A stretch of DNA of 64,000 bases. Origin: Raillietiella orientalis. Taxonomy: Eukaryota. Both the position numbers and the translations under genes were made by a program. Of this stretch, positions 2,695 through 48,200 are shown in pieces. Numbering within the stretch: position 1 is the first letter of the stretch; every line of letters begins with the position of its first letter. The stretch covers positions 4,402,001 through 4,466,000 of the forward strand of contig JAYWIR010000006.1 of assembly GCA_036172245.1 (NCBI GenBank). The letters run 5' to 3'. A model generated the notes under the pieces. The model made no database searches. It worked only from the letters and a program-made list of their open reading frames with translations, and was not told where the DNA came from.

Positions 2695-3140
2695 GAGTGG
2701 GGCCGGTGGTATTGAAGAGGACATGCTAAGGCATTTCAAGTCTTCGGGCGCCTCGAGTTCGGCCCGTTTCGGTTGGGTAAGTCGCCACTTTGCAGGCTCC
2801 AACGCTGAAGTGTGTGCGGGTTGAGCGCTGCATGCGCAGGCGGGAGGACGCTGGGTGGTAAGACCGGGTAGGAAACGCGAGAGGATGGCGGCGGGAATGT
2901 CCACCCCCCCCCCTCCCCCGTTGGTGGTGGTTGAGGGCGCTGAGCTGGAGGCGCGAGAAACGGGGTCTCGTCGACCGGTGTGTGCGTTGATGGCTCGGAC
3001 GCCAACGCCAAGGACGGGTGCGCTGTTGCCGGGGTCAAACGGGAAAGTCCACATTCTTCCCGGGCGATCTTCACGCAGAGACCGAGTCTCCCGATGAGCG
3101 AGACGGGTGCGTGGGACCGTTTCGCCTTTCTTGAAACCCC
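2695..3140. repeat. Dispersed repeat A, copy 1 (about 445 bp, GC-rich)
   Basis: Near-identical direct copy at 17186-17630 (GAGTGGGGCCGGTGG...TTCGCCTTTCTTGAAACCCC) with unrelated flanks. Confidence 0.9.
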
Positions 3141-7624: not shown

Positions 7625-9087
7625 ATGTTAAACCTACCCGTCGACGCGAAGCAGAACGCAAAAGTTCAGAGACTCAGGCAGCAGATGGAGCAGAGGAAAC
7701 AGCGCATCCTGAACCCGAAGCAGTACGCGCTGGGAGTAGGTCGAGCATCAGAAGTGGAGACGGGGAACCTTTCCTCCTCTCTCCCAGATCGACCTGCAAG
7801 GTGTGGAGCAGCAAATCCAGGAAAAACAGCTCCAGAGACGAAGGGATAAAGAGATTGACGAGGCCATCGAGAAGCTCATGATACGCAACGACCACGTGGC
7901 ACAGGAGCTGCAGCGAAGAATGCTGATGGTACATCCCCGCCCGCTCCGAAGCAGCGCCTCGGAGCCTGACATCGAGGGGAGGCTGGGGTGTGTAATCGCC
8001 GCAGGAGCGAGTGGAACGGGATAAAGATATCGAGGCCTTCCGCCGGCTGTACCAGGGCCGCGAGCGGAGCCGAGAGTGGGACCTTAACAGCAAGGCTGGC
8101 ATTTTAGGAAACAGCATAGAAGAAGCCAAACTTGGCCCCTCCGCAGCCCAAAGGTGAGCCCCTGCTCTCCGTTCGATGCGCCGAGTTCTCACGAAACAAG
8201 AGTTAGACAGGTTTCAAGGCGAGGATGTCGAGTCGCAGGAGAAGAGACTCTGGAGTATGCGGCAGCAGCATGACTGGCTCCAGCAGCAGATCGCCGAGAA
8301 GAGGCAGTTGAGAGACCAGGAGCGCAGGGACAATGAACAGTACGAAGCCTACGTACGCTCTCTGAACAGCAGCCTACAGGACCTGGAAACTGCCAAGGAG
8401 CAGTGCCGCCGGTTCATCAGCGAGGCGACCAACCAACTCAACAAGCGGCTAGTAAGTTTTGTTCCTCCCCCTCTTCCGCTTCTCTTTTCTTGAATACAGA
8501 CAACCCTTTCGACACCATTCGATCTTGTATTGGGCAGCTGCCGCTGCCAAGGGGAGAGGGTGAGGGAGGAAGGGCTATCTCACTATGCTACCACCAGATG
8601 GAGGAGAAGCAAGCCAGGAGGGAGGAAGCTAAGCAACAGCTCAGCGAAAAGAACCGGATACACGTCGAGCCGTCTCACCACGAAGGGTGCAAAGATCATG
8701 ATGAGTTCCGCGGAATGAGCAAGGAAGAAGTGGACAACATACGAAAGCAGCAGCTGCAGCAGATCCAGGAACGAAAGGTAATTGCTTGTATTCCCTATTT
8801 TGGGATTCCCAAAGACTGATGCTCTGCTCTCCTCTCTCCCTCTCTTTCAGCAAAGGGAGACAAAGATGGCGCAAGAGGAAGAACAGTGGGCGCGGATGCT
8901 AAAGCACTACGAAGCAATGTATGACCATGCTGCAGATGAAGCTTCAAGGCGGAGGAGGGACCTGCTGCTTCAGCTGCAGAAGGAAAATGCCCACCTGGCG
9001 GAAGAGCAAAAGCACCGGCGGGTGGAAGAAAAGTTCGCAGTAAACACTGACGAGTTCTTCAAGCACTTTGGGACCAGTGCCCGCTGA
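7625..9087 (+). CDS. RIB43A: RIB43A-like coiled-coil protein (RIBC1/RIBC2 family, ciliary doublet microtubule inner protein), 6 exons, about 352 aa
   Basis: Exons 7625-7735, 7788-7928, 8005-8153, 8211-8451, 8598-8777 and 8851-9087; all introns GT-AG and frame-consistent (1059 nt). The product carries RIB43A-family motifs: MLNLPVD...EQRKQRILNPKQYALGIDLQG, REWDLN, GPSAAQRFQGED, WLQQQIAEK, FRGMSKEE...QLQQIQE and C-terminal EFFKHFGTSAR*. Confidence 0.88.
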
Positions 9088-9090
9088 CTG

Positions 9091-10335
9091 TCACGAGTCA
9101 GAGAATGTAGCCAATAAAATATCAGCTGCAGCTCCAGGGGTCATCCGCCCATTGAGCACATCCAGTTCAAGGCGGGGGAGCATGGCACTGACAGAGGTGT
9201 GCTGACAGAACAAGTCGAGGACAGAGTCTTTTATGTGTCGCCACATCCACAACTGCCGCTGCTCTCGACGGCGGACTTCTAGTTCTCCAGAGCTCAGCAT
9301 TGTGGTATGGAACTGCTGCACAACTTCTCTCAGTTGCACCATGCCATCATTTGTTTTGCTGGACACCAGAAGAACCTGCAAGAAAGATACAATCCTCAAG
9401 TTAATGTGAAAATAAAAGTCCCACCCTGCTGAGCAACCTGTGGCTTCCAGCATGTTGTCCGTGGACGCATGTACTTCAGTGCACTCACATATTCCTGCTT
9501 CATGCGTCTGGCAGGCACTAGAAGGTCACCATCAGCTTTGGTTACCACTACTATATCAGCACACTCTATCACACCACGCTTCAATCCCTGCAGCTCATCT
9601 CCTGCTGCAGGTGGCACAAGCAACACAAAGCAGTCCACCATGCCTGCCACAGCCAGCTCTGACTGGCCTACCCCTGCACCCAGTACGCCACTAGTGTCTG
9701 CACCCTCTACCTACGGTCTCCACTAACAGGAACTCAAATCCAGCACTTTCACATAGGCAGATGGCTTCTTGAGTAGCCCGAGTCACACCTCCAAGATGGC
9801 CACCTGTTGGTGAGGGGCGGATAAAGGCATTTGGTTCCCTGGCCAGTCGTGGCATCCTTGTCTTGTCACCCAGCAACGATCCTGCTTGGAAAATAACACC
9901 AGGAAGGAGGAACAGGGGTGACTGACGTACCACCTGTCCTGATAGATGATGGATCTACTGCCAACACAGCCACTTTGTGACCACTAGATGTCAAAATACA
10001 GCCAAAAGTCTCAATTAAGGTTGATTTGCCTGTGCCTGGAGGCCCTGAGAGTCCTGTTTGTCACCATGCAAATCATTTCTCTTTCCTTTACATTGATCAC
10101 ACTGACCAATGCGTTGACTAACCCGACCTGTGTGATGATTCAACACAAGATCCAGCAAAACTTTTGCTGCTTTCCTCTTTTCAGTGTGAATACTTTCCAC
10201 CAGTGTAATGCCCTGGGCTAAATACTGCCGGTCACCTTTTACAATACCATTGTACAACAGTTGTGGATCGGGTGCTATAGTGGCAAAATTTCTGAGTGCT
10301 CTTGTATAACCAAGCCACTTGCCAGTTACAGCAGC
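9091..10335 (-). CDS. MMAA: Methylmalonic aciduria type A protein (MMAA/MeaB/ArgK family GTPase, cobalamin chaperone of methylmalonyl-CoA mutase); initiator Met must come from an upstream exon
   Basis: Minus-strand exons 10335-10107, 10053-9931, 9881-9711, 9673-9438 and 9375-9091 (1044 nt, frame-consistent, GT-AG). Motifs: [27 protein letters not shown] (Walker A), [79 protein letters not shown]. Confidence 0.95.
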
Positions 10336-10450
10336 CTAATAAAACACAAACTAACTGAAAAGATAGAAGAAAATGCTTTCCCACGCTCAAATAAATAGTA
10401 GTTCTAGTTAAATTTCCCTCTCTTGCTTAAGAAACAAGAGGCACTGGGAA

Positions 10451-10456
10451 TTTATT
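10451..10456 (-). promoter_or_regulatory. Candidate polyadenylation signal of PAM16
   Basis: AATAAA on the minus strand about 24 nt after the PAM16 stop and upstream of the MMAA first acceptor. Confidence 0.5.
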
Positions 10457-10479
10457 GTCAGCATCCTTAATATTCATTG

Positions 10480-13400
10480 CTAAAGACTTTTTTTCCACCT
10501 TTCCTGGGTGGATGTGGTTTGGTGTCGGATCTCTTCATCTATCCTTTGCTTTGCACGTATAACCTACATTTAACAATTTGTAAACATTCAATTTACGCGA
10601 TTAAGAAGTCCATTACTTTGGATTGCAGGTAAAATGATCCTCCATGTGCCTTGTCATTGACTTCAAAAAGGTGCTCAAAGCGTTTTACAATTTTCTCTGG
10701 ATCAAGTGAATCAATATTGAGGATTCGCTTAGCCTCATCCAAGGACATTCCCATGGTCATATTAGCTGCTGCAGTCTCAGCACCTTTCCTTCCACCTCCA
10801 GCAGCTCTAGCTGCTTGCTGACTGGCTTCATTGGAAAACAGTGTGGTAAATTCACCAATTGCTACATACCTTGCAATTCCTGTCTGAGAGCATGAGAAAA
10901 AGCCTTCACTAGGATCTGTGTTCCCGCAATAACAATCTGAATAAGGATCTTCGCCTATGGAGCAAAATACTGTCACAAAACTTCAACAATGGCATTAGAA
11001 ATCAAATTTCACTGTCTTGAGAACTATCACATTTTACTTAAGATTTACTTTCGCCTAATGATCGAATACGAAGAAATTAGGAACATAATTTCAATTTCAG
11101 CAAACTGTTTCAACTCAAGAAGGAAGTATATGAAAAAATATTGTCTAAAGGTGGGAGTTGATCTCTGCATATGAGATTTTGAAATACCTGATTCAACTAT
11201 TTATTTGAATTCTAAAGCTATGAAAACAGGTTTAAAAACAAAATAAAAAAAAAGGTAAATTACATAAGTCTACACATTGGTATAAGAACTGAGTGTGAGT
11301 AAAGCTGCCTCTCTAACAAGTTTCACATTTTACTTTGGCCAACCTCCAATGGAAATTACGTTCTCTCAGACTGACAAATAAAAAACATCAATGATGGGCC
11401 TTGAATACTTCAATGTTGTAAAATAAATGCGTGATCCATAGGAAACATGAAAGGGCACAACATATATAAAGATACTACATAAGATTCAATTTTCAAGTTC
11501 ATTCAAAGCTACTGCAAAATTCTAAACGTGGGAGTCTTAGGAGAGAAGGAACTGATATGGAACTTTTGAAAAATACAAACCATTCGACTTGAACATTTCT
11601 GATTTATGTCCAATATTTTATTACATAGTTTGCAATCTCCAAATTTTAATCAGTCTATCTTAGCTTTCCACACGTGATCCACAGAATTACCAAATACACA
11701 AATACTCTAAGAGATTATATGGAGTAGATTTTCCGGGGGATTTTCTCCTAGAACGCTATATAATCGTGATTATTTTATCTTTATAGAAGATACCTTCATG
11801 AACATTAAAAACTAAAGTAACTATTAAAAATACTGGGCATTCGAATCCATTGTTTTATGGGAAAGAAGCTACTGCAGCTGCATGACTTTTTATGGAACTA
11901 TTGGCTCTTGTCCTATGGAACTAAAACAGGAATACTGTTAGCTCCACATAGACAATTTTGTTCTTCCATTTTTACTTCAGATACAAAAAAGAGGTGAGAA
12001 ATGGATAGAATGTAGAAATAAACTACTAGGACATGACTGACGAAGAAGACGATCCATACAGTGGCGCATTAAGAAACGAAACGAAACGAACAATCATATG
12101 AAATGAAAACAAAACAAAATTTCTAGACTGAGATGCGAACCTGGAATGTGGTAGTACTGAAGAGAATTGGATCACAGTAAGAATAGGAAAGACTGACACC
12201 AAGAAAATTAAAGGGACTCCTCGAAGCTCTCGACACATTCCTACTCTACGGAGACTCAGTTCCTCTAAACATGGCGTTCCCAGAAGCTGCTTTCTGTTTT
12301 CAATGATTCTTCTCGCGCTTCCGATGCTTAATAGGAAGCTCCACATGCTACAGCATACACACATCATGCATCCAGCTGCACAGTCCATAGTCTAGAATGG
12401 AAACTAAACAATGGAAAAAAGATGCTTAAGTTGAGACAAGGGCTTGACCATCTAACATGAAAGTCAATATCCCGATTTTGCGGGGATGAGTTCCGATTCA
12501 AACCATTCTTCTATGCACTTAGTCATCTCATACGCACTCTTGGTTGACACCAAACAGCCTTTCTCGTTAATTTGCACTGTGAGACTCACGAGGAAGGGGA
12601 CATCATTATCAAAGAGATGAGAATTCCATCTATCCTTTGCTATCAAGTCACCTAGTGAAGTTTGATTGCTGTCATATTCTCAGATCAAAAGAGCAATGTA
12701 CCCTACATTGGTACTATTGAATTTCATCAATGTTTGCAGTGATCCAGAAAACTCTCAAAGATTATTGCACTTTCTCTGCAATTTGCATTTTTCTTCATTT
12801 TGTAAACCACCCTTCGAACGACATGCCGTGCTGCAAAATTCCTGCCAAGACTCGCAAACTGTGGGACGAGCCATGGTTTAGGAAAAGGATGAATTATATA
12901 TTCCGATGCCGAAAGTGTGGAGCAGATAGAATTACAAGTTATCATATGAAATTTCGATTTCCTCCGATTTACGCTGTCAGATTAACATTACAGATATGAC
13001 AGATGTCTTCCAGAACCTGTTTATTGACTCACAGATTTCCTTTATTTCGCTATTTTCCACCAGAAACTCCTAATCCTCCAGTTCGTATGTGAGCTAGTCT
13101 TGCAAATTGTGAGGGTACAGCCTTTCATATAGATTTATTTTGGAAACCAGACTTCCACTTCTCTTCTCATGACAAGGAAGTTTTCTTTGTTTATCTATGT
13201 GCTTAAGGAATCGTTGACCAAGGAATAGATTCCCTGCCTTGCCGAATGCCCAATTCCCTCCCTTTACCAAAGCTTTGATTTTTTCCTAGAAACGCTCGTC
13301 CGTTCTTTCTTCTCTAGGACGTCTAAGAAAGCCTTTGCATCTGCTCTTAAAGTCTTCACAACTTTCCAGAGTACTTCATTTTGAAGGCCCTTAGAAGTCA

Positions 13401-14236
13401 AGTGGAAAACCTAAATATTATCGCCCTGCCATGAGTTCTAACTAATCTGAAATCGTCACTTGCAATTCCTCAAAAGGAAAGAATCAACACTTTGCATACA
13501 TCAAACAGGAATATGTGTAGTACATCACAAATCCTATCGTTCAGTAACAGATATTAAATAATATAGTGATAAAATAGTGATAGATAGGTAGCACGCAGTG
13601 ATCTTATTCCAATCTTCAATGGTTTATACGAATTCTCCGAAAAAATGGCACTTTTCTAGATGATCGGTTATTACACGGGAATTTTTGAAAAAAATGAAAC
13701 GAAAGCTAATGAATGACACTACAAAATGTAGCTTGTGAGGCAAAAAGGGATACGAATTACTGTTCCCATGTTATCCTATTCATTACACCCTTTGATTGAG
13801 AATGTTCTTCCAGCATATTCACATTCCTAGTACTGTGAATATCTACTTTATTTGGGAAGCGGGCGGCCCGTTGCTCGTAGCGGGCTGCATGTCGGATTTC
13901 TCCCTTATGTAATGAACATGCGATTGGATTGTAGTGAGCTATTAGCGTTAAGCGAGTGAATGCGGAAACGTGACGTTATGGAATATGATTAGCGCCGGAA
14001 AAGGGTTGCTATTTTCTAAATAAAGATGGACATGAAGTGACCAAGTTCAGGGTTCAGTTTGTCGCGTGGCTGCTATAAAGTGCTGCAACGCTTCACGGGA
14101 ATCCATTCTCAGATAACGAATCATTCGAGATTTGAAAGATCTAAATTGTTTGAAGCATGCGTTTGCTAATTTCAAAGGGTAACAAACTACGAACGATTGA
14201 TTACTTCCTAAATTAATCAGTGGACCGACTTACCAT
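10480..14236 (-). CDS. PAM16: Mitochondrial import motor subunit PAM16/Tim16/Magmas, about 126 aa, 4 coding exons
   Basis: Exons 14236-14234 (ATG only, followed by a perfect GTAAGT donor; inferred), 10954-10870, 10825-10617 and 10563-10480. Product: M|AKILIQIVIAGTQILVKAFSHALRQELQASQQAARAAGGG...GMSLDEAKRILNI...[32 protein letters not shown]. This has the J-like domain and the [10 protein letters not shown].RAK signature. Exons 2-4 are secure; exon 1 placement is less certain. Confidence 0.9.
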
Positions 14237-14651
14237 AGCAATGAAACATTACGAGAACTATGAAAGAAAAGGAATCAAGGCAGTAATTGACAAGGCCAGT
14301 GACAAAAAAACGGAATAGATACTTGGCCACGGATAATCACTACGCATATCATTCACCGTGAATGCAGTGAATTGATGTCTTTCTTTAATGGATGCATCAC
14401 TTAATAAATTGAATAGTTACCCTTATGTTTAGTGAGATTTCACAAAGCAACCAGAAAGAAAATCTTTGCGAATCGGACAATCTGGGACTTTTGCGAATCT
14501 GCCTGTCAGGTGGGAAAAAAAAGTCTCCTTCACACAAGCAACTCGATAATATGTGGATTATGTAAACCAATATTTTTTCGTTCAAAGATGATCTCGGAAA
14601 TAGGGAAGACTTGGTTACGCTGCCTACCTCGTTGCATCTGCACGATTGAAG
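14237..14651. promoter_or_regulatory. Probable bidirectional promoter and 5' UTR region between PAM16 (-) and NDP kinase (+)
   Basis: Head-to-head initiator codons about 465 bp apart (14236 and 14701). The region retains CpGs, unlike the CpG-poor gene bodies on either side. A likely 40-nt 5'UTR intron of NDPK lies at 14652-14691 (GTGAAC...GCTGAC...TTTGCAG). Confidence 0.55.
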
Positions 14652-14700
14652 GTGAACGCGCAAGGGCGTGCTGACGGTCCAGGGTTTGCAGGCTCACATC

Positions 14701-15614
14701 ATGGCTCCCAAGGAGGAACGAACGTTTATCATGATCAAACCCGATGGAGTTCACAGACAGCTCATCGGTCAAATCATCCAAAGATTTGAACAAAAGGGCT
14801 TCAAGTTGGTGGCCATGAAATTCATGAAGGTAAAAAGAATGCAAGTCGTTTTTCTCATTTACAGGCCAGTCGTTTAGTGCATTCTCTAGTGGCAGCTAGA
14901 ACACTATCCAGTGGTCTGCAAAAGCGTTTATATTGAAAAATTTGATTCAGTCAATTGCAATTGTTTGATCGCATGTAATGTTTGGAGTCGTAAACTGTAA
15001 ATGCATTTTCATGTTGTACTCGGATTGCCTTGCAACATAATTTCGAATCTTGCATAAGTCAGCATTTTGTTTTATTTAGTTTATTGGAAATCACAGTTAT
15101 CTCGAATAAAAAGGCATGAAGTGTGCCAAAGCCACAAGATGAGGCCGAGTAAGCCAGTGGTGTTTTTTTAGGTACTAAAGGAGTTGGTTTCAAAATGATG
15201 CAATGTTATATAAGGCCCTTTCGTTTCTTTCAGCCTCCTGCTGAACTTCTGAATGCTCATTACGCCGAACTGGAGTCTAAGCCGTTCTTCCCTTCTCTTG
15301 TGGAATATGTTGGATCAGGTCCTGTGGTGGCCATGGTATGGGAAGGTCTAAATGTAGTGAAAACTGGTCGGCAAATGCTTGGAGAGACTGATCCTGCTGA
15401 TTCCAAACCTGGCACCATCAGAGGAGATTTCTGCATAGAGAAAGGAAGGTGAGTGCATGTTCTGAAGAGTACTGAGTGCTTTGCTTTTTTACACAGAAAC
15501 ATCATCCATGGATCTGATTCTGTAAGAAGTGCAAATAAAGAGATAGACCTGTGGTTTTTTGAAAAAGAATTGCAGGATTGGAAGCCTGTGGCCGAGAAAT
15601 GGGTCTATGAATAA
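14701..15614 (+). CDS. NME: Nucleoside diphosphate kinase, group I (NME1/2, awd-like), 153 aa, 3 coding exons
   Basis: Exons 14701-14829, 15234-15448 and 15497-15614 (462 nt). Motifs: [72 protein letters not shown], catalytic NIIHGSDS and C-terminal WVYE*. Confidence 0.97.
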
Positions 15615-17185: not shown

Positions 17186-17630
17186 GAGTGGGGCCGGTGG
17201 TATTGAAGAGGGCATGCTGAGGCATTTCAAGTCTTCGGGCGCCTCGAGTTCGGCCCGTTTCGGTTGGGTAAGTCGCCACTTTGCAGGTTCCAACGCTGAA
17301 GTCTGTGCGGGTTGAGCGCTGCGTGCGCAGGCGGGAGGACGCTGGGTGGTAAGACCGGGTAAGAAACGCGAGAGGATGGCGGCGGGAATGTCCACCCCCC
17401 CCCTCCCCCGTTGGTGGTGGTTGAGGGCGCTGAGCTGGAGGCGCGAGAAACGGGGTCTCGTCGACCGGTGTGTGCGTTGATGGCTCGGACGCCAACGCCA
17501 AGGACGGGTGCGCTGTTGCCGGGGTCAAACGGGAAAGTCCACATTCTTCCCGGGCGATCTTCACGCAGAGACCGAGTCTCCCGATGAGCGAGACGGGTGC
17601 GTGGGACCGTTTCGCCTTTCTTGAAACCCC
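17186..17630. repeat. Dispersed repeat A, copy 2
   Basis: Matches 2695-3140 apart from a few substitutions. Confidence 0.9.
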
Positions 17631-17958: not shown

Positions 17959-18079
17959 ACGCGGAGACCGAGTCTCCCGATGGGTCTCGCTCATCGGGAG
18001 ACTCGGTCTCCGCGTGAAGATCGCCCGGGAAGAATGTGGACTTTCCCGTTTGACCCCGGCAACAGCGCGTCCGTCCTTG
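17959..18079. repeat. Inverted 96-bp fragment of repeat A with a perfect 24-bp hairpin
   Basis: 17984-18079 is the reverse complement of 17499-17594 (3 mismatches). 17959-17982 and 17992-18015 are perfect inverted repeats around a 9-nt loop. Confidence 0.9.
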
Positions 18080-23964: not shown

Positions 23965-25507
23965 GTCGGAATATGCCGTAACGAGCGGGCAAGCGGGGTC
24001 ACTTCCACCTCCGTCAATAAAAGACGCATATCCAGGGTTTCCACGTGCGAGGCGGCGGCCCCAGTTGGTAACAAAGGGAAAAGAGGGAAGGAGAAGGAGG
24101 GGGGGGGGGGGAAGAAGAAGAAGAGGAGAAAGAGAGCATCCTATCAGCAGCAGTCGGTCGCCGTGTCACGTAGTTTTCTACTGCCTCTTCGAGGGAGGGC
24201 CCCTTGCTTGCTTCCCCCCCCCCCCATATCACCACCCTTCCCTGGCTTGTGTTATTAATAGACATGAAAGGAATTGCGCACTACATGCAACCTTAGCAGA
24301 CGCGGGCACATGGCACGGCGCGAGTCGATCCTTTGCTTAACGCAATCCGTTAGGCTGCGTATCGATCGAACAGCTGCACGTGCTGCCGTGACTCCACCCT
24401 ACGGATGTGTGGTCTCGATGCAGACGATGTCCCTGTGGCATTTCGGGTCGCTCCTGTGTCTCGCAGCGTGCGTCAGTTCGGTGGAAGGGGAGGAAGGACA
24501 TCCGGAGGAACACGCAAGTGTCTTCTCGGGCTTGGGAGGGCTTGGATTACTCCACCTCAAAGGTTTGCAGGCCGGGTTCTCGGGAATCGCCGGGCACGGA
24601 AGCAACCGGAACTGGTCAGGGGGACTCTGGAAAGTAGCAGAAAGGGGAGAAGGGTAGTAGAGGAGGAAACTCGCCCATCAGGCGGCTGAGTTTCCAGATG
24701 GACCGCCAGTTCGCAGGTGGCGGATGGAGTCGGAGAAAGGAAAAGGACCCAAATGCCTCTTCTGCTTGTTACGGCATCACGCGGTTTGCGGGGGCAAAGA
24801 GGGGGTGCAGGCAAGCTGACCAAGTGCGAGGAGGAAGTGCCGTCCGCGCTTGCCAAGCCGACTTGCAGTCTGCGGATGCTGCTGCCGCTGTTCCCAAGTT
24901 CTTCGGGTCATCCTGAACGATTGACTTCCAGTGGCCGCTCGCAGAGCTCGAGAGGAAAGCGGTTGCTATGAGAGCAGCAGTGCACAAGGAGGCGCGGCCA
25001 AACCAATTCGGGGCGGGTCTCCGGAAAGTCACCATCCCCTCCATCCCTCGCAGCAGCGGCGCTGCGCGTCGGCTGTGGCCACCGGCGTGGACGAACGGAT
25101 TGATCCGAAGCACCACGACGAGGAAGGTGACCTCGACCGACTGCTTGCGTCGGAAAGCACGGGGCACGAGAAGTGTGCTGGCCGGTCTCGAGGGGACAGC
25201 AGCCAGCCCGGTTGCACTCCCCCTCCTTTCCTCCGAACAACACGCGTAACCTTTCAACAACTGCGTGCCATTTCCCTAAACACTCCCTCCGAGCAGGCGC
25301 GTTGAGTGGAGATGCACCTCCTCCACTTACAAAAAAAAGGCAGACATCTCGGCTTCATCATCGAACACTCGCGGAGTAGCGCAGGTTACCATCTACCCCC
25401 ATCCCTAGGTAATAATCGTGTCGGCACGACGACGCGATTCGCTAAGCTGCGCACCCATGCCCAGCATGGCGAGGACAAACCCGCGCGAGCTGCGTCACTT
25501 GCCCCTC

Positions 25508-26057
25508 CCCCCCCGCTCCTTCTCGCGTTTTTTTTTTTCTTCTTCCTCTTCCTCCTTTCTTTCAAGCGTTCTGGCGCGAGCGTTTTCCACGTGTGTTTTT
25601 GCGGGCCGCTGCAGATCCGATACACGTCCGCCGCACGTCTTCCCGGAGATGCGCTTCCCCCCCCCCCCTCTCTCCCGGTCGCCATGGTCGTCTTCCTCCA
25701 TCCCCCCCCCCTGCCCTCCCCCGCCGCGAGCAGGGAGGGAGGGGGCTCACCGTCGGCCACGGCAGTCGTCGTCGTCGTCGTCGTCGTCGTCGGAGGCGCT
25801 CGGGTCGCCAGGCAGCGGGCGATGGTCGTCGGCCTGCCTCGTCGCAACGCGGGCAGGTGTTGGATCAATACTTAGCCTAACGGGTTGCGCTCGGCGGCGG
25901 ACCGAACTGCCACTCGGCCGTGCGCGCGCGTCCGCTGCGGTCGGTCGCTCGTGGCCGCCTACGCGCCTGCGGAAAAAAATGCGGTGGCGGTGTGGCGCTC
26001 GCGAGCGGCGAAGAGCGGACTATCCTTCCCATTGTGTCGTCGAGATCCAAGCGCCAC
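25508..26057. repeat. Dispersed repeat B, copy 1 (about 550 bp, contains (GTC)n and T/C runs)
   Basis: Almost identical direct copy at 33589-34139. Confidence 0.92.
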
Positions 26058-31020: not shown

Positions 31021-33588
31021 CTCATATCCTTAGTCCTTCGGGTCCAGCGCTGAAGAGGAGGGTAGAGGAACTCTCCGCGCACCCCCACTGGCGCCAACAG
31101 GCTCAAAGAAGCGGCTCGACATCGCCAGGCTCTCCCGGGGTCCGGAAGATCGACAGCGCCTGGGGGCAGCGCTGTGATCTGTCTCCCCTTGCCGGAGGAG
31201 GTGGGTGGGCCACCATGGATCCTCCGTCTTTTGCAGGGGCGCTCGTGCCTCCAGAGAGCACCGGACCGTCTCCGACGAGGGGCTGCTACCTTCGCATCAG
31301 AGGAGAAGGATCCGTCCCTCGGCTTCCGGGAGATCACCCCGAGGGCGCGGCGAGCTCCTTTCGACTGAGTAACCTCCCTCGGAGGTTTCGGCACTGGAGC
31401 GATCCCTCTTCTTCCCCGGACCCCGCGCTCTTTCCCTCCTGAGAGAAGCGGGAGCGGACCGCATCCAGGCTCCCTTTCCGGAAGCCCCGGCCGCTGAGTA
31501 GTCGCCGTCTCTCTCACCAGGGAGGGGAGGGCGGGATCCGCCCCTGCAGCCATCCACCGAGCCCGAAGTCACAGGAGGCCCTCACCCGGGTGGCTTCCTC
31601 ACGGTGGGACAAGAGGGACGCGCAGCGCGCCCCTTCCCTGCGCACCGCGCCTCGCATGGCCGCCGCGAGATGGAGCGCGCGCGACCTCACGAATCTCGTC
31701 AGGAGACGGCGTCCGTCCCTTTGTCTCCCTTGCATCCCGTTCGAGGGAGGCCTGGCCGCCCTTCAGCTTGTCTCCGTCCGCCTACCTCTGTGGTCACCCC
31801 TGAGTCAAGCAGTGTTTGCTCCATTGAGTTTCCAGGGCTGACCGCAGGACGTGTCGCGCGGGGCGCCGCCCGGCGGAAGCTCCTGGAAGCGACCGGCCTT
31901 TCGCGCTGGTGCCGCCGAGTGTCCTCCCGCCTGAAGGAGGAGGGCGCGAGGCGGCTCCCCGCCACTCCGAGCGGACCCATTGGGCTCGGAAGCCCTGGGC
32001 AAGGATCGCCTCCTTTCCGTCCAGCTTTTCCCCCGACGTCCCTCAGGGCATCTTACGGGCAGAGGATGACAACCGCTCCCAGGACAGCCGAACTTGCTGC
32101 TGCTCCCCTTCTCATTCCCGAGCCGGAAGGTGGCGAAGACGAAGGGGGAAGGCGCGGACTCAGGGGCGGCAGCGGCAGCTCCAAATGCGGTGCGATCGGG
32201 CGTCCCTCTTGGCTTTCGCGGTTCGTTCCGGGGCGCGGAGACCTCTCCCTGGGGGCGCCCACGTTCGCCTCGCTGAAGTGCCTTCCCACGTGGAACGTCG
32301 GTCCCGGAGACCCCGTGGATGAGGAACGCGTACCCCGGAGATCCCTCGTCCCCTGGGCGCCACTCCCTGCCCTCCGTCCGCTCCCCAGGAAGGCAGGAAG
32401 CGTCCTGCGGGAGCGCCGGGCCCGCGGGACTGGTCCGCGATCAGGTCCGCTGAGTGCGCGCGAAAATGCGGAAGGGAGGAGGGCGGCATCGGGGCGCAGC
32501 CTCCGAGGTCAGAGGGAAGAGTTGGGGGCAGTTGCCCTCGCCATTCGTCCGACTCCCCGAGGACGCGCGCCCGGTCGTCCCTTGTTCCTGCTCGGAGGAA
32601 GACCAGGGGCGGGGAGTGGTTTCGCCACGTCCGCTGGAGTCCAGGAAAGCGCCACGCTACTCTTTGCAGGCAAGGCGGGAGCGGCGTGGCGGACGCCGGG
32701 TGGTGACACCCCAAGCTGCGCCCCAGCGGCTGCAGCGGCTCCCGAGGGCTGGGAATGACTTCCCCTCCATCCACCTCGTCAAACTCTCCAGGTGAAGACC
32801 CGAGGCCTCCCACTGACCACTTACCCAGCCCGGAGCACTCCTCCCTCGGAAATCGGAGAAGGCGCTTTCGCTTGCGCGGGGCGCTCAGCAGGAATCGACG
32901 CCCTTCTGCCCGCGGCCGGGAGGAAGCCACGGGGCCGCGGCTGCGACCCACCCCTCGGCCGCCTCGATCCCCAGGCGGGGGGAACAGCCGACCCTCTCTC
33001 GGGTGGACCCCTCGGGCCCTCCCTTGCGCGCGGGAAAGCCGACCCCTCCAAGGCGGTCCAACGTCCCGTCGTCATTCGGTCTCCAAGGCGGGTGCGCCAC
33101 GCGCCTCCTAACCCCCTCTCTCCCTTCGACAGCAAAAGGAAAGATAGGAAAAGGAGAAGCAAAAAAGCACGCGCGCGCACACATGCAGCAGCGCCTCGAC
33201 CGGGCCAGAAATAAAAATAACGCGCGCGAGCCACGCACGCAGCACTCGGGGGAAACCGTGCGAACTTTTCGGTGGAACAGGGATCGGTTGCAAGCGGGCG
33301 AGGCGGGGCCGATCGGGCCACAGCGGGCTCGGCCCTTCGTCACAGGAGGATCGGCACGCTTCATGAAAACCCAGCGCGGTTATTTTTATTTCTCCTTCCA
33401 GCAGAGCTGCTCCCCTACGCACGTGCTTCCCCGAAAGGGGTGATCCCCGCTTTACGGGGCGGCTCGCACCCGGTGGCTAGGCAGACGCCGGAGCCCCCGT
33501 CCGTGGCAGACTCGAAAGACGCGCAGCAGGGCACTCCCCCCACCCCCAAGTGACCTCATCCACACCGAGCATATAGCAAAGGAAACTG

Positions 33589-34139
33589 CCCCCCCGCTCC
33601 TTCTCGCGTTTTTTTTTTTCTTCTTCCTCTTCCTCCTTTCTTTCAAGCGTTCTGGCGCGAGCGTTTTCCACGTGTGTTTTTGCGGGCCGCTGCAGATCCG
33701 ATACACGTCCGCCGCACGTCTTCCCGGAGATGTGCTTCCCCCCCCCCCCCTCTCTCCCGGTCGCCATGGTCGTCTTCCTCCATCCCCCCCCCCTGCCCTC
33801 CCCCGCCGCGAGCAGGGAGGGAGGGGGCTCACCGTCGGCCACGGCAGTCGTCGTCGTCGTCGTCGTCGTCGTCGGAGGCGCTCGGGTCGCCAGGCAGCGG
33901 GCGATGGTCGTCGGCCTGCCTCGTCGCAACGCGGGCAGGTGTTGGATCAATACTTAGCCTAACGGGTTGCGCTCGGCGGCGGACCGAACTGCCACTCGGC
34001 CGTGCGCGCGCGTCCGCTGCGGTCGGTCGCTCGTGGCCGCCTACGCGCCTGCGGAAAAAAATGCGGTGGCGGTGTGGCGCTCGCGAGCGGCGAAGAGCGG
34101 ACTATCCTTCCCATTGTGTCGTCGAGATCCAAGCGCCAC
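33589..34139. repeat. Dispersed repeat B, copy 2
   Basis: Matches 25508-26057; the visible differences are one substitution (GATGCGC/GATGTGC) and a C-run length. Confidence 0.92.
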
Positions 34140-43600: not shown

Positions 43601-45284
43601 CGGAAGCCGCGTGTTTGCGGCTTCCGGAGAAGCGAAGTCCAGAGGCGCTGGCCGCGGCGGCGGAACTTGCGCGGACGAGCAGACGGCTCGGGGAGGGGGG
43701 TGAGCAGGCGCCACCCACGGCCTGCGTAGACGAGGAGCGTCTGCTCTGGGCGTCCTCGGAGACGTTATGCCTGCGAGGTCAAAGGCTCCGAAAATATTTG
43801 CAAACGCCTGTCCTCGCCATGGATGCAACTGCATCTTATATAAGAATGTTCTGTTCAAGTTTATATACATGTATACATCCCTATACGTATGTATATGCAC
43901 ATATATAAACATAAACACAATAAATAAATGAAAAGAGAACGCATGCCGCAGAACGATGGCCGGCGCAGCCCCCTGCGGACCTCTCTCCTCTCCATCCTTC
44001 GATGCTGTAGGTGCACGAAATCCCCCACCAGAGGGCGTCCCTTACCTGTTATGACGAACGTGAGGATGGTGTTGGCGCACCTCCGATGCGCACTAATGAT
44101 GACATCGTTCATGTGGGCAAGGAGGTGGTCGATGAAGTCGAATCCCGTGATGGAGCACATGTCCCACCGGAGCTTCGACAGCAGCATCACTTCCCATTTC
44201 TACGGGACACGAACACAGGGCTGCCGATCTCTCTTCTTCCTCCTGGCCCCTTACCCCTGCCTCGCGCGCGCAGACCCTCCGAATCGAGTAGGAGCCGACC
44301 GCGGCAGACGAGTGCCTTCCCGGAAGGAAGAGGGGGAAGGAGACCCTTCCGGTCCGAGTGCCACTGGCACCCTCAGCAGCTGCCTGCGGAAGGCTCCCGC
44401 TTCGAAGAGGGAGCGGTGCGGACCCCGGGCGACGATGAACGGGCGCGTGCGCGGCCGGGAGAGATCCCGTGTCGAGCCTGGCTCCATTTCCGCGCAGCGG
44501 CGGCGCCTGTCTCGTCTGCCGGCTCTCCCCGTCCTCGTCCCGCTTCCGTGGAGGGAGGGCGCCCGCGGCGCGGGGATGTCGGAAGGGACAGCTGCCGGCA
44601 GGAAGTAGAGCGCATACCGAGAGCGACTGCCTCCTCGCCCGTGCGGGAAGGACCGGGCATTGGCGGCGAGGGGAGAGGGGGAAAGGCCGAATCCCCCGCT
44701 CGTCCGCCATCGGCAGGCCGGCGTGGGAGGTGGTCCTGGGAGTCGCTGCTCACCTTGATGTCCCCCTCGGACACGCTGTAGTCGGTGTAGTAGCACATGG
44801 TGGCGATGGACAGGGCCTTGCACTGCCTCAGCTTGGACGCCACCAGCAGGCACACGGTTCCCAGCAGCTGAAGGTGGATCCTGTTGATTTCGCAGGTGCA
44901 CAGGAACCGATCCAGGAAGTTGACGGCCAGAGGGAACACGGAATCCTCGCAGCTCTGCTCCCCGCACACCTTCGCGTGCGGAGGAACACACATTTTCCCT
45001 CTGCTCTTCCTCTATCCCCAGCGCCCGGCAGCCTCTAGAGGCTCGCCGCTGGCTGTTCTGCCTACCTCCATCATCCAGGACGTCACGATCTTCCTCATGC
45101 ACGGCTTGATGTCCCGCTGCAGCGACTGGAAGTAGTCGAAGGCGGGTAGGTAGGCGGACTCGAGCTGGAGGAGGTTCTTCAGCACCTTTTCCTGGCCCAG
45201 GATGTCGGGGTCGTACTCTGCCCGCAGGCCCGGTTCATCGCTGCTGCTCAGGCGCTCCCAGCAGCACAAGTCGGGGCTGGGCAT
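40636..45284 (-). CDS. CycD: G1/S-specific cyclin D, about 298 aa, 4 exons
   Basis: Exons 45284-45066, 44969-44754, 44199-44046 and 40943-40636 (GT-AG, frame-consistent). N-terminal LxCxE Rb-binding motif (LCCWE). Cyclin box [38 protein letters not shown]...LQLLGTVCLLVASKLR, then YTDYS and WEVMLLSKLRWD. C-terminal D-type phosphodegron TPTDIQDI. Confidence 0.95.
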
Positions 45285-48200
45285 CACCGAGGGAGAGGAG
45301 GTGGGTTCTGGGGGGTCTAGGGGGTGGGGGGATGGGGTATCGGACCAAACTCTGTAACTGTTTTTTTTTCTTTTTCTCTTTTTTTTCTTTTGCTTTTTTC
45401 CGGCTTCCCCTGGTGTGCACGTGGGCGCGAAGGAGGAGCGAGAAAGGGTCGAGACGAGGCTCCTCTACCACCACCACTACCACCACCAGCAGCAGCAGCT
45501 CTTGCACCTTCTTCTCACACGTGGAGGGGCAAGTCTCTCCGCAGCGCCGCCAGCGACTCCTGTTGCTCCGGAGAGCAATGTTTACATTCTGCTGGAATCA
45601 CTGGGAGCCCCATCACTTATCCCAGTCAGCCATCTGCCAGCGAGAGCCCACCATACGCGTCGATAGTCGTAAGCGATAGCACATGCCTGCAGAGTACGCG
45701 ATTGGAGCACGGAAGCGGAAGAGTGCTGCAACCAATGGCGCGCGTACGGAGGATCGCGGTGACGTAAGACGATCCTCGCGTACGACTCTACGCGCGCGCA
45801 AGCTCCCGCTCCTCCACGAGAAGTCTGCGCTGCAGTGGAGAAGGGAGGGGATAAATGAAACCTGTAAGTTATTATGTGCTCCCACTTCTCGTTTCCACTC
45901 TCCCACGCACGCATGCAGCGTGCGCAGGAAAAGTCCGTGCGCGGCAGAGGTGGGCAGGAACGCTCTCCTGGGAATCCGGGGAAGAGGAGTCCGACGGTTT
46001 CGGGGTTTCGTTCCGACGGAGGGATTTATCGATCGCCTGCAGCCGAGCGCAATTCCGAGAGGTGCCGTCCCTGTCCTGCGCGCGGCAGCAAAGAGGGTGG
46101 GCGGACGCGGTGCGGTGAAAGAGAGGGAAGGAAGACAAATTTACGCGACTCCCATGCTGTGCCTGAGATCTTTCTGGCACGAGCACGACAATCAGCCGGT
46201 TCTTTGGTTTCCAGCGTGACCTTCTACGAGGCGACTCTCCGGTTATTGCGAAAGAAAGTAGTACTTCCAGACGATGCGTAGCCATTGCCCAACGTGGTGC
46301 TCTCGTGCGTGGGAAGGAAAAAACAAAAGTAAACATATCGATCCGGCCACGTGAGTTCCTCGCGGACTTCATGCCTCCTGACTACCAAAGTCGGCAGAGC
46401 GCGTGCTGGCGCCGAGCTTGAGAGCTCAGGGATGGAGTCATGAGAACTACCAAGGGAACGCGTGGAATCGCATTCTTCCTGCCCTCTTGGGCAGGCAGAA
46501 TGCAATTCTCCAATTTCCCCGTCAACTCCGGTTCGGGGTCCATTTCGAAGGCATAAAGATGAGTACCAATCCTCATGTCATGATTTGGCAGCCGATTCTC
46601 TGCGCCTCCGAGCGACCGATCCCTGCAGAGGATCCTCTGCGCCTCTGCGTCCTGTCCCCGGAGAGACCAACCCTTGCTATCTCCGAACGAGGCACAGCCC
46701 TCTTGGTCTTTGTCACAAAACCTTGCAGACGATCTCAGCTTGTGCTAGTTCCACCACCCATAACTCCGCCTCATCCTCTTTTTGCAGGGGGTAGAACAGA
46801 GTGCAGCCGCTTTCATGGGCCTGGCCCAAGCCGCCAGACCCATGAAAGTGAGGTGGCTGTTCGTGAAGACGCACGGGGAGGGGGGGGGGGGAAGGGGATT
46901 TCCATCCCGGACGCGAACTGCAACGACCGCCCCTAGGCAGCAGACGTTCGGCACCCGTGGAAGAACACCGAAGGCGGCTTCGGCTCCCCTTAGCCGCCAG
47001 GTGCTGGTAGCAGGGAGGAACTGGTCTCTGCCGGGGCCATGTCCCACATTCTGAGCTTCCTTTCGCAGGCTCTCGCAGTTGCAGACACGTGCGCCGCTGA
47101 CTCTGTTGCCTACCGCTCGCCAGGAGGCCTTCCGGAAGCCCGCGGGAAGTGTCGCTTTGACTCAGTGGGTGGACCGGGGCGATTTTTCCAAATGCCAAGG
47201 AGACCCACAAAAAACGTTCCGCAGAGGATGGATTCTAAGGGAGACTTTATGCAGATGGATAACCGGAACGCAGATCCTGATACTCGTTCGCATCCAGAGG
47301 GAGATCTCGTTTACGTCTTGACAGAGATGGAACGAGTCACGCAAGATCAGACTTTCTGCACGCGTGCACGGAGGTTCTTTCCTCACGCCAACGTACGAAC
47401 GCGCTCTTCCTAGCTACATCCCTGCCAAACGCTTGCGCCACCCTATTCGCGTTGCGTCCACTTTGCTGGAAGCCTGGAAAGAACTGCTCTTCCCCTGGAA
47501 CAAGACACCACATAGGTTCCCACCCCGCAGCCCTGTTTTCCATAACACTCTCTCATGGAGTGAAGGAGCTTCCTCTTTACATGGAACTGGGAGATGAAGT
47601 GAAGATAGGTAACACCTGAAAGCTGCATAACACATGACAGAAAGTCTGGCGCCCTAGCAGAGTCTCTTTTAGTGATGAGTCATCGCCTAGAGATTACGAG
47701 TCCTTCAGTCGCATTCCTATGGGAGCTTTTCCCCGTCAACAACATGCTGTGAGGACCATGTGGCTAGGAAGACAGCAGGAGCAATGATGCCAGTCTCTTA
47801 GTCTTCTACTTTGATATAATTTTCCAAAGTGCATTCGCATTCTTGTATATGCGAAAACACGTAATCCCTTGTGCACGCATCCGAACACTCGCGGAAGCTC
47901 TTCGGGAGCGCAGGAGCAACTTCCTTAACTTGCGGGCGTGCGCTGCCTGACGACGCAGACAGCAAACGGGGCGTGCTCCACAGATTTCGTGATGCAGAGT
48001 CCGAGCCGCCTCGCCATTGGCACTAACGAGATGTGCAAGAGATTGAAAATCGTCTCTGATAAGACTACTCTGCCTGTCGTTGTCAAGGGAAGAAATGGTG
48101 GGCATTCTCCAGTTGATGGTTGCGCAACGACTGTACTCGCTCAAAGATCCTTCTGAACCTCCGTGAAATCTCATCTTCCTGAGCATGGGAACGGTTCTTT

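Follow-up and report, generated by a model that had tools for sequence, protein, structure and literature searches.

The MMAA gene in a 64,000-nucleotide stretch of DNA from Raillietiella orientalis (contig JAYWIR010000006.1, positions 4,402,001 to 4,466,000; hereafter the window, numbered from its first letter) encodes a full-length GTPase of the MeaB/MMAA family without a start codon of its own. Since the gene is otherwise intact and conserved, RNA processing must complete it, and the initiator must come from splicing or a comparable processing step. This makes the MMAA locus both real and unusual. We tentatively propose, with more doubt than conviction, that MMAA takes its initiator by cis-splicing from PAM16, the neighboring gene on the same strand, whose first coding exon consists of ATG alone; the junction, the read-through and the shared promoter that this entails we infer from the DNA. 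It is slightly more doubtful still that this one three-base exon initiates both PAM16, a subunit of the mitochondrial import motor, and the unrelated MMAA, a mitochondrial chaperone of vitamin B12, the product being picked by the choice of acceptor versus the PAM16 poly(A) site. As far as DNA alone can tell, the start may come from the ATG exon of PAM16, from an exon hidden elsewhere or from a spliced leader.

As for the MMAA gene model, its five exons on the minus strand add up to 1044 nucleotides (nt), which spell 347 codons and a terminal TGA without any stop in between. Each of the four introns is of the GT-AG type, their lengths being 53, 49, 37 and 62 nt. The Pfam MeaB family (PF03308; gathering cut-off 23.1) matches exons 2 to 5 separately, with 51.7, 75.5, 79.5 and 28.5 bits. 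When a supplied Met is counted, the Walker A motif GPPGTGKS lies at residue 81, and the full-length product is collinear with known MMAA. Identity is 57-60% over about 328 residues to the best 40 of the 120 MMAA sequences compared, which are mostly from vertebrates and include one bivalve. By taxon, it amounts to 59% for lungfish, 57% for the bivalve, 53% for sea urchin, 49% for Macrostomum, 47% for nematode and 43% for Monosiga. Exon 4 reaches 76%, to lungfish, while the best value for exon 5 among the 150 representatives listed is 53%; the 20 named ones include skate, carp, a bird, Monosiga, sea urchin, nematode, Macrostomum, Aplysia, an amoebozoan and a diatom. The full-length match, the Walker A motif and the identity to lungfish MMAA are thus what the window protein shares with the MeaB/MMAA G3E GTPases (PF03308; PDB 2WWW and 2QM7). 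It differs from them in having an N-terminal extension of only about 19 residues and a gene body that lacks a start codon. The absent initiator concerns how MMAA is expressed, not whether it belongs to the family.

Given the intact frame, the canonical splice sites and this level of identity, MMAA is very probably expressed. The same evidence bears on the possibility that it is not normally translated, being a very recently disabled gene that has lost its first exon, a gene whose first exon is hidden by an assembly fault or a gene with a non-AUG start. Such a reading would account for the missing start codon, and exon 1 has, among its first 23 codons, just one in-frame near-cognate codon, an ATA. 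However, an open frame of 1044 nt, canonical splicing signals, conservation against orthologues and a window free of N make it improbable.

Where the start codon should be, the sequence reads ttttattag/GCTGCT (slashes mark splice or cleavage points), with an in-frame TAG that directly abuts the acceptor. With a Met placed before exon 1, the next Met is residue 128, which lies beyond Walker A. A spacer of 144 nt (10479-10336, minus strand) separates the stop of PAM16 from the MMAA acceptor and contains two ATGs, at 10477 and 10464, both of which reach stops. None of its seven GT dinucleotides scores above -2.1 with a rough donor matrix, and the sole one in phase 0, CCA/GTGCCT, scores -4.35. An MMAA start inside the spacer, which offers no usable pair of ATG and donor, is therefore rejected. 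The spacer closes with a U-rich tract that has two AGs separated by 19 nt, and the MMAA acceptor has a U fraction of 0.60 at positions -23 to -4, the highest among the 10 acceptors that were scored. These results bear out what an earlier note on this DNA had claimed about the gene: the limits and frame of MMAA exon 1 with its abutting stop, the position of the first internal Met past the Walker A motif, and the uselessness of the two spacer ATGs, which hit stops and have no convincing donor.

The N-terminus encoded by exon 1 appears complete. In alignments, bacterial MeaB (2QM7, residues 4-55) pairs with residues 20-72 and the crystallized construct of human MMAA (2WWW, residues 19-62) with residues 26-69, so that about 19 residues, basic and acid-free, precede the MeaB core. 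With the supplied Met included, the N-terminal 23 residues contain three basic and no acidic residues (charge +3) and an RNF/A motif, as the earlier note had described for the product of joining the ATG exon to 10335. The best hydrophobic moment of an 18-residue segment in this region is 0.46, the 95th percentile for the mature part being 0.43. In the best 40 MMAA alignments the match starts at residue 51-99 of the orthologue, apart from three shorter entries in which it starts at residue 2 or 25. For Macrostomum, whose MMAA model is partial according to its source, the first 100 or so residues do not align with window exon 1. Because the MeaB core begins at about residue 20 and is preceded by presequence-like features, MMAA exon 1 would need only a Met; judged by its sequence, it encodes a complete presequence-like N-terminus that is short of that Met alone.

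The candidate source of the Met is PAM16. Its four exons, when joined, form an open frame of 126 residues with no internal stop, in which exon 2 begins at codon 2. The Pfam Pam16 family (PF03656; gathering cut-off 30.3) matches exon 3 with 77.6 bits and a 28-residue stretch of exon 2 with 23.2 bits. According to the earlier note, the first coding exon of human PAM16 likewise consists of ATG alone. The window exon, ATG followed by the donor GTAAGT, lies beside the divergent NDK gene. The string ATGGTAAGT, which represents this ATG/GTAAGT site, occurs once in the window when both strands are considered, 0.22 occurrences being expected. When the upstream interval of 3746 nt was shuffled by dinucleotides, ATGGTAAGT appeared in 50 of 3000 shuffles and the relaxed form ATGGTRAGT in 98 of 3000. 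The exon is thus unlikely to be a chance occurrence and, because the motif is rare both in the window and in local shuffles, the ATG-only exon of PAM16 is probably real. A second ATG, out of frame, lies 13 nt upstream of it and suggests either a very short 5' untranslated region (UTR) or control by an upstream open reading frame (ORF).

We then scored every stretch on the minus strand between 15200 and 10336 (4.9 kb) that is opened by ATG, is free of stops and ends at a phase-0 GT. Among these 108 candidates, the ATG/GTAAGT exon is the best, with a donor score of 6.67. The second (5.86) is the PAM16 exon 2 donor paired with an out-of-frame ATG at 10893, which we consider unlikely, as it would require scanning past the main ATG, whose own frame then stops at codon 64. 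Phase is 0 at 14234, 10954 and 10335, and the frames are open for both joins; in particular, the ATG exon joined to 10335 gives an open frame of 348 codons. A perfect RNA complement of 13 nt between intron 1 of PAM16 (11196-11208) and the spacer (10387-10399) brackets PAM16 exons 2-4 together with the poly(A) signal and would loop out these exons. A complement of this length was reached in 12 of 500 shuffles. We give it little weight and regard its significance as uncertain because its duplex energy of -23.6 kcal/mol is ordinary when compared with 323 intron tiles (median -21.4, best -32.3).

The scan also provides the evidence for and against a different source, namely a promoter specific to MMAA and a short Met-supplying first exon, located in PAM16 intron 1 or elsewhere upstream, whose splicing to 10335 would pass over exons 2-4 of PAM16. 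The genes would then overlap on one strand with no exon in common. A missing 5' exon is, after all, the commonest cause of a seemingly start-less gene, and intron 1, at 3279 nt, has room for a promoter and an exon, the other six introns of PAM16 and MMAA being 37-62 nt long. The best independent phase-0 candidates are at ATG 11805 (MFMK/GTATCT, 1.86), 12727 (1.54) and 12371 (1.12), all far weaker than ATG/GTAAGT. In the tiny introns of MMAA, donor scores range from -1.66 to 2.66. Sites that this locus is certain to use are thus as weak as the lower of these values, though every such weak donor lies in an intron no longer than 62 nt. Moreover, the 13-nt complement would aid any upstream donor equally. 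On the other side, none of the 18 ORFs scanned in intron 1 contains a Pfam family, exon 1 already resembles a complete presequence, and a donor within the intron would meet the PAM16 exon 2 acceptor as well. We consider a private first exon unlikely, if a serious contender.

Our proposal of a shared ATG exon can be set out as follows. Transcription would begin in a promoter region common to PAM16/MMAA and the divergent NDK, and part of the transcripts would read through the PAM16 poly(A) signal. In these, the ATG exon at 14236-14234 would be spliced through its GTAAGT donor to the U-rich acceptor at 10335 instead of that at 10954, PAM16 exons 2-4 being skipped en bloc. The product would be Met plus the 347 encoded residues, the first 19 or so of which may form its mitochondrial presequence. 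The first intron of MMAA would thus enclose PAM16 exons 2-4, an arrangement like that of the cholinergic ChAT/VAChT locus, and output would be governed by acceptor choice against cleavage and polyadenylation. The parts of this scheme that the sequence itself shows are the two gene models, the lack of an MMAA start, the match in phase, and an ATG exon that is both strong and non-random. Support also comes from the MMAA acceptor, the U-richest of those scored, and from known genes with shared 5' exons. In the cholinergic locus (bioRxiv 10.1101/2021.03.29.437568), ChAT and VAChT have common 5' exons and one gene is nested in the first intron of the other. As would be the case in the window, there is one promoter and one shared first exon, one coding body lies between that exon and the other body, and splicing decides which protein is made. 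The shared cholinergic exons are untranslated and the proteins belong to one pathway, whereas the window exon would hold the initiator and a poly(A) site would be involved. [quoted passage not shown]

Several points weigh against a shared ATG exon. It requires read-through of a canonical AATAAA and an exon skip of 3.9 kb. The donor matrix behind our scores is an approximate consensus, not a trained model, and since donors in use at this locus score down to -1.66, low-scoring exons in intron 1 retain some plausibility. If transcription starts upstream of it, the ATG at 14249 would open an overlapping ORF of 39 codons in either spliced mRNA and so interfere. We know of no case in which a shared exon carries the initiator codon itself, and none appeared among the papers listed by a literature search. 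Finally, the same-strand spacing of 144 nt between the genes, with 115 nt from AATAAA to acceptor, has the look of trans-splicing operons as they are characterized in PMC12582326. The interpretation offered in the earlier note, that one ATG exon serves both genes, is therefore upheld only in part. Those of its premises that can be tested on the sequence held: MMAA is intact and start-less, PAM16 exon 2 starts in phase 0 at codon 2 downstream of an ATG/GTAAGT that yields an open PAM16 frame, that site is the best of the 108 candidates, and the PAM16 AATAAA is where it had been placed. The shared exon itself we regard as conceivable while leaning against it; a spliced-leader AUG, which the note had named as an alternative, and a private exon in intron 1 fit the same DNA.

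The spacing just mentioned is central to the spliced-leader alternative. Here, PAM16 and MMAA would form an operon in which the transcript is cleaved after AATAAA and a spliced leader ending in AUG is trans-spliced to 10335, providing both cap and initiator. Besides the short same-strand distances, a strong U-rich acceptor followed directly by codon 2 is what this reading would lead one to expect, and introns of 37-62 nt suit flatworms, among others. For Schistosoma, PMC9851317 cites Cheng et al. (2006) as reporting that 28% of trans-spliced transcripts have the leader AUG in frame and that this AUG is needed by more than 40 cDNAs. PMC12582326 takes same-strand pairs 300 bp or less apart as flatworm operon candidates, into which PAM16 and MMAA fall, and PMC9851317 describes flatworm leaders whose terminal AUG serves some mRNAs as initiator. 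The likeness is close: an acceptor followed by codon 2 of an ATG-less gene, no more than 300 bp downstream of a same-strand neighbor, and an identical resulting protein, since the shared-exon and leader models predict the same one. The difference is that the window has a genomic ATG/GTAAGT exon 3.9 kb upstream on the same strand that could act in cis. There is also an acceptor-like tttgcag 9 nt before the NDK ATG (14688-14703), whose junction would be in frame, and a ccgcag 2 nt before the RIB43A ATG (7625); these AGs are too little to show trans-splicing.

Against a leader stands, first, its taxonomic range, for AUG-ending leaders are known from flatworms only (PMC9851317). The window MMAA is less similar to that of the flatworm Macrostomum (49%) than to those of lungfish (59%) and bivalve (57%), and in a tree of 17 rows it groups loosely with sea urchin and vertebrates (support 83/91), seven of the 14 inner branches being open. 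No spliced-leader (SL) RNA gene was found in the 64-kb window (no Rfam hit and no pattern hit), which is a very small sample, and PAM16 appears to use a cis ATG exon. The ATG/GTAAGT site was itself considered as an SL RNA gene and rejected: it has a fold z-score of 0.07, only a chance CRISPR-DR hit (E 1.8) and no pattern of ATGGT followed by an Sm site. Overall, we consider trans-splicing of a leader distinctly unlikely.

Phase compatibility allows one more product, also raised in the earlier note and found to be in frame as claimed. If the PAM16 exon 3 donor (10616) were joined to 10335 with exon 4 skipped, residues 1-99 of PAM16 would be fused to MMAA in an open frame of 446 residues, and the internal RNF/A site might free MMAA after import. 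Both ends are in phase 0 and the intron would be just 281 nt. However, the donor, AAA/GTAATG, is weak (0.74) and has its usual acceptor 53 nt away, and we know of no precedent for a truncated PAM16 domain ahead of a presequence, which makes a fusion highly improbable. The small share of probability left over falls to something unforeseen.

Table 1. Positions of the genes and signals discussed, in window coordinates
Feature	Position	Strand	Remarks
RIB43A	ATG 7625; stop TGA 9085-9087	+	Pfam match
MMAA exon 1	10335-10107	-	presequence-like residues 1-19, then start of MeaB core
MMAA exons 2-5	10053-9931, 9881-9711, 9673-9438, 9375-9091	-	Pfam MeaB; stop TGA 9093-9091
PAM16 poly(A) signal	10456-10451	-	AATAAA; 115 nt ahead of MMAA acceptor
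PAM16 exon 4, coding part	10563-10480	-	stop TAG 10482-10480
PAM16 exon 3	10825-10617	-	ends in phase 0, donor AAA/GTAATG; Pfam Pam16 77.6 bits
PAM16 exon 2	10954-10870	-	begins at codon 2; Pam16 PF03656 23.2 bits on 28 residues
PAM16 intron 1	10955..14233	-	3279 nt, AT-rich
PAM16 exon 1, coding part (probable)	14236-14234	-	ATG alone; donor GTAAGT 14233-14228
Upstream out-of-frame ATG	14247..14249	-	13 nt before PAM16 ATG
NDK	14701..15614; ATG 14701, stop 15612-15614	+	Pfam match; divergent from PAM16
D-type cyclin	44373-45290 (about 44.4-45.3 kb)	-	Cyclin_N 60.4 bits

The window is eukaryotic sequence, contains no N and is very uneven in base composition, its G+C content ranging from 33% to 72% in 2-kb steps. 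Pfam was run on 258 of the 882 ORFs of at least 45 residues, which were picked by composition, and among these only five genes were recognized: RIB43A, MeaB/MMAA, PAM16, NDK and a D-type cyclin. The first four are crowded into 8 kb (Table 1). NDK has its own ATG, 464 nt from that of PAM16, and its exon 2 shows a best identity of 81%. RIB43A and MMAA are convergent, their stops being separated by 3 nt, and each 3' UTR must therefore be antisense to the last coding exon of the other gene. Within MMAA, the G+C content shifts sharply, from 45-47% in exons 1-2 to 52-54% in exons 3-5, with about 36-45% in PAM16 and its introns. The 37-nt GT-AG intron of MMAA (9674-9710) interrupts the conserved ETVGVGQSE motif, the other small introns in the cluster being 44-62 nt long. 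Away from the cluster, the cyclin gene starts at an ATG of its own behind a long pyrimidine tract and is surrounded by very G+C-rich DNA; apart from it, no gene was recognizable among the ORFs scanned in the long G+C-rich stretches at 22-47 kb and 56-64 kb. Dispersed direct repeats, each about 450 nt long and 96-100% identical, form two pairs, at 2695-3140 and 17186-17630, and at 25505-25956 and 33586-34038. The first family also includes an inverted piece of 96 nt at 17984-18079. Both pairs are probably young mobile or duplicated elements.

Taken on its own, the sequence points to an animal that evolves at a moderate rate, and nothing in MMAA hints at a flatworm relationship. Introns as short as 37 nt narrow the possible host lineages, and the presence of RIB43A argues against a nematode, since nematodes have no motile cilia. 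Wider searches gave little: an Atlas search returned bacterial MeaB clusters only, a word-based search for relatives of exon 1 produced 148 candidates with none at E <= 0.001, and in metagenome contigs none of 215 pattern hits to the exon 1 peptide was confirmed and a 27-base stretch of NDK had no hit.

An immediate consequence of the missing start codon is that gene predictors will mis-annotate the window MMAA or drop it. Should a leader be the source of the initiator, the gene would be an ordinary member of the known flatworm mechanism, and this animal would trans-splice with an AUG-bearing leader. If instead the shared ATG exon is used, two unrelated proteins would receive a common initiator codon through alternative splicing, and the amount of MMAA made would hinge on transcription of PAM16 and on how splicing competes with polyadenylation. 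The arrangement would then be a cis-acting counterpart of the AUG-bearing spliced leader of flatworms.

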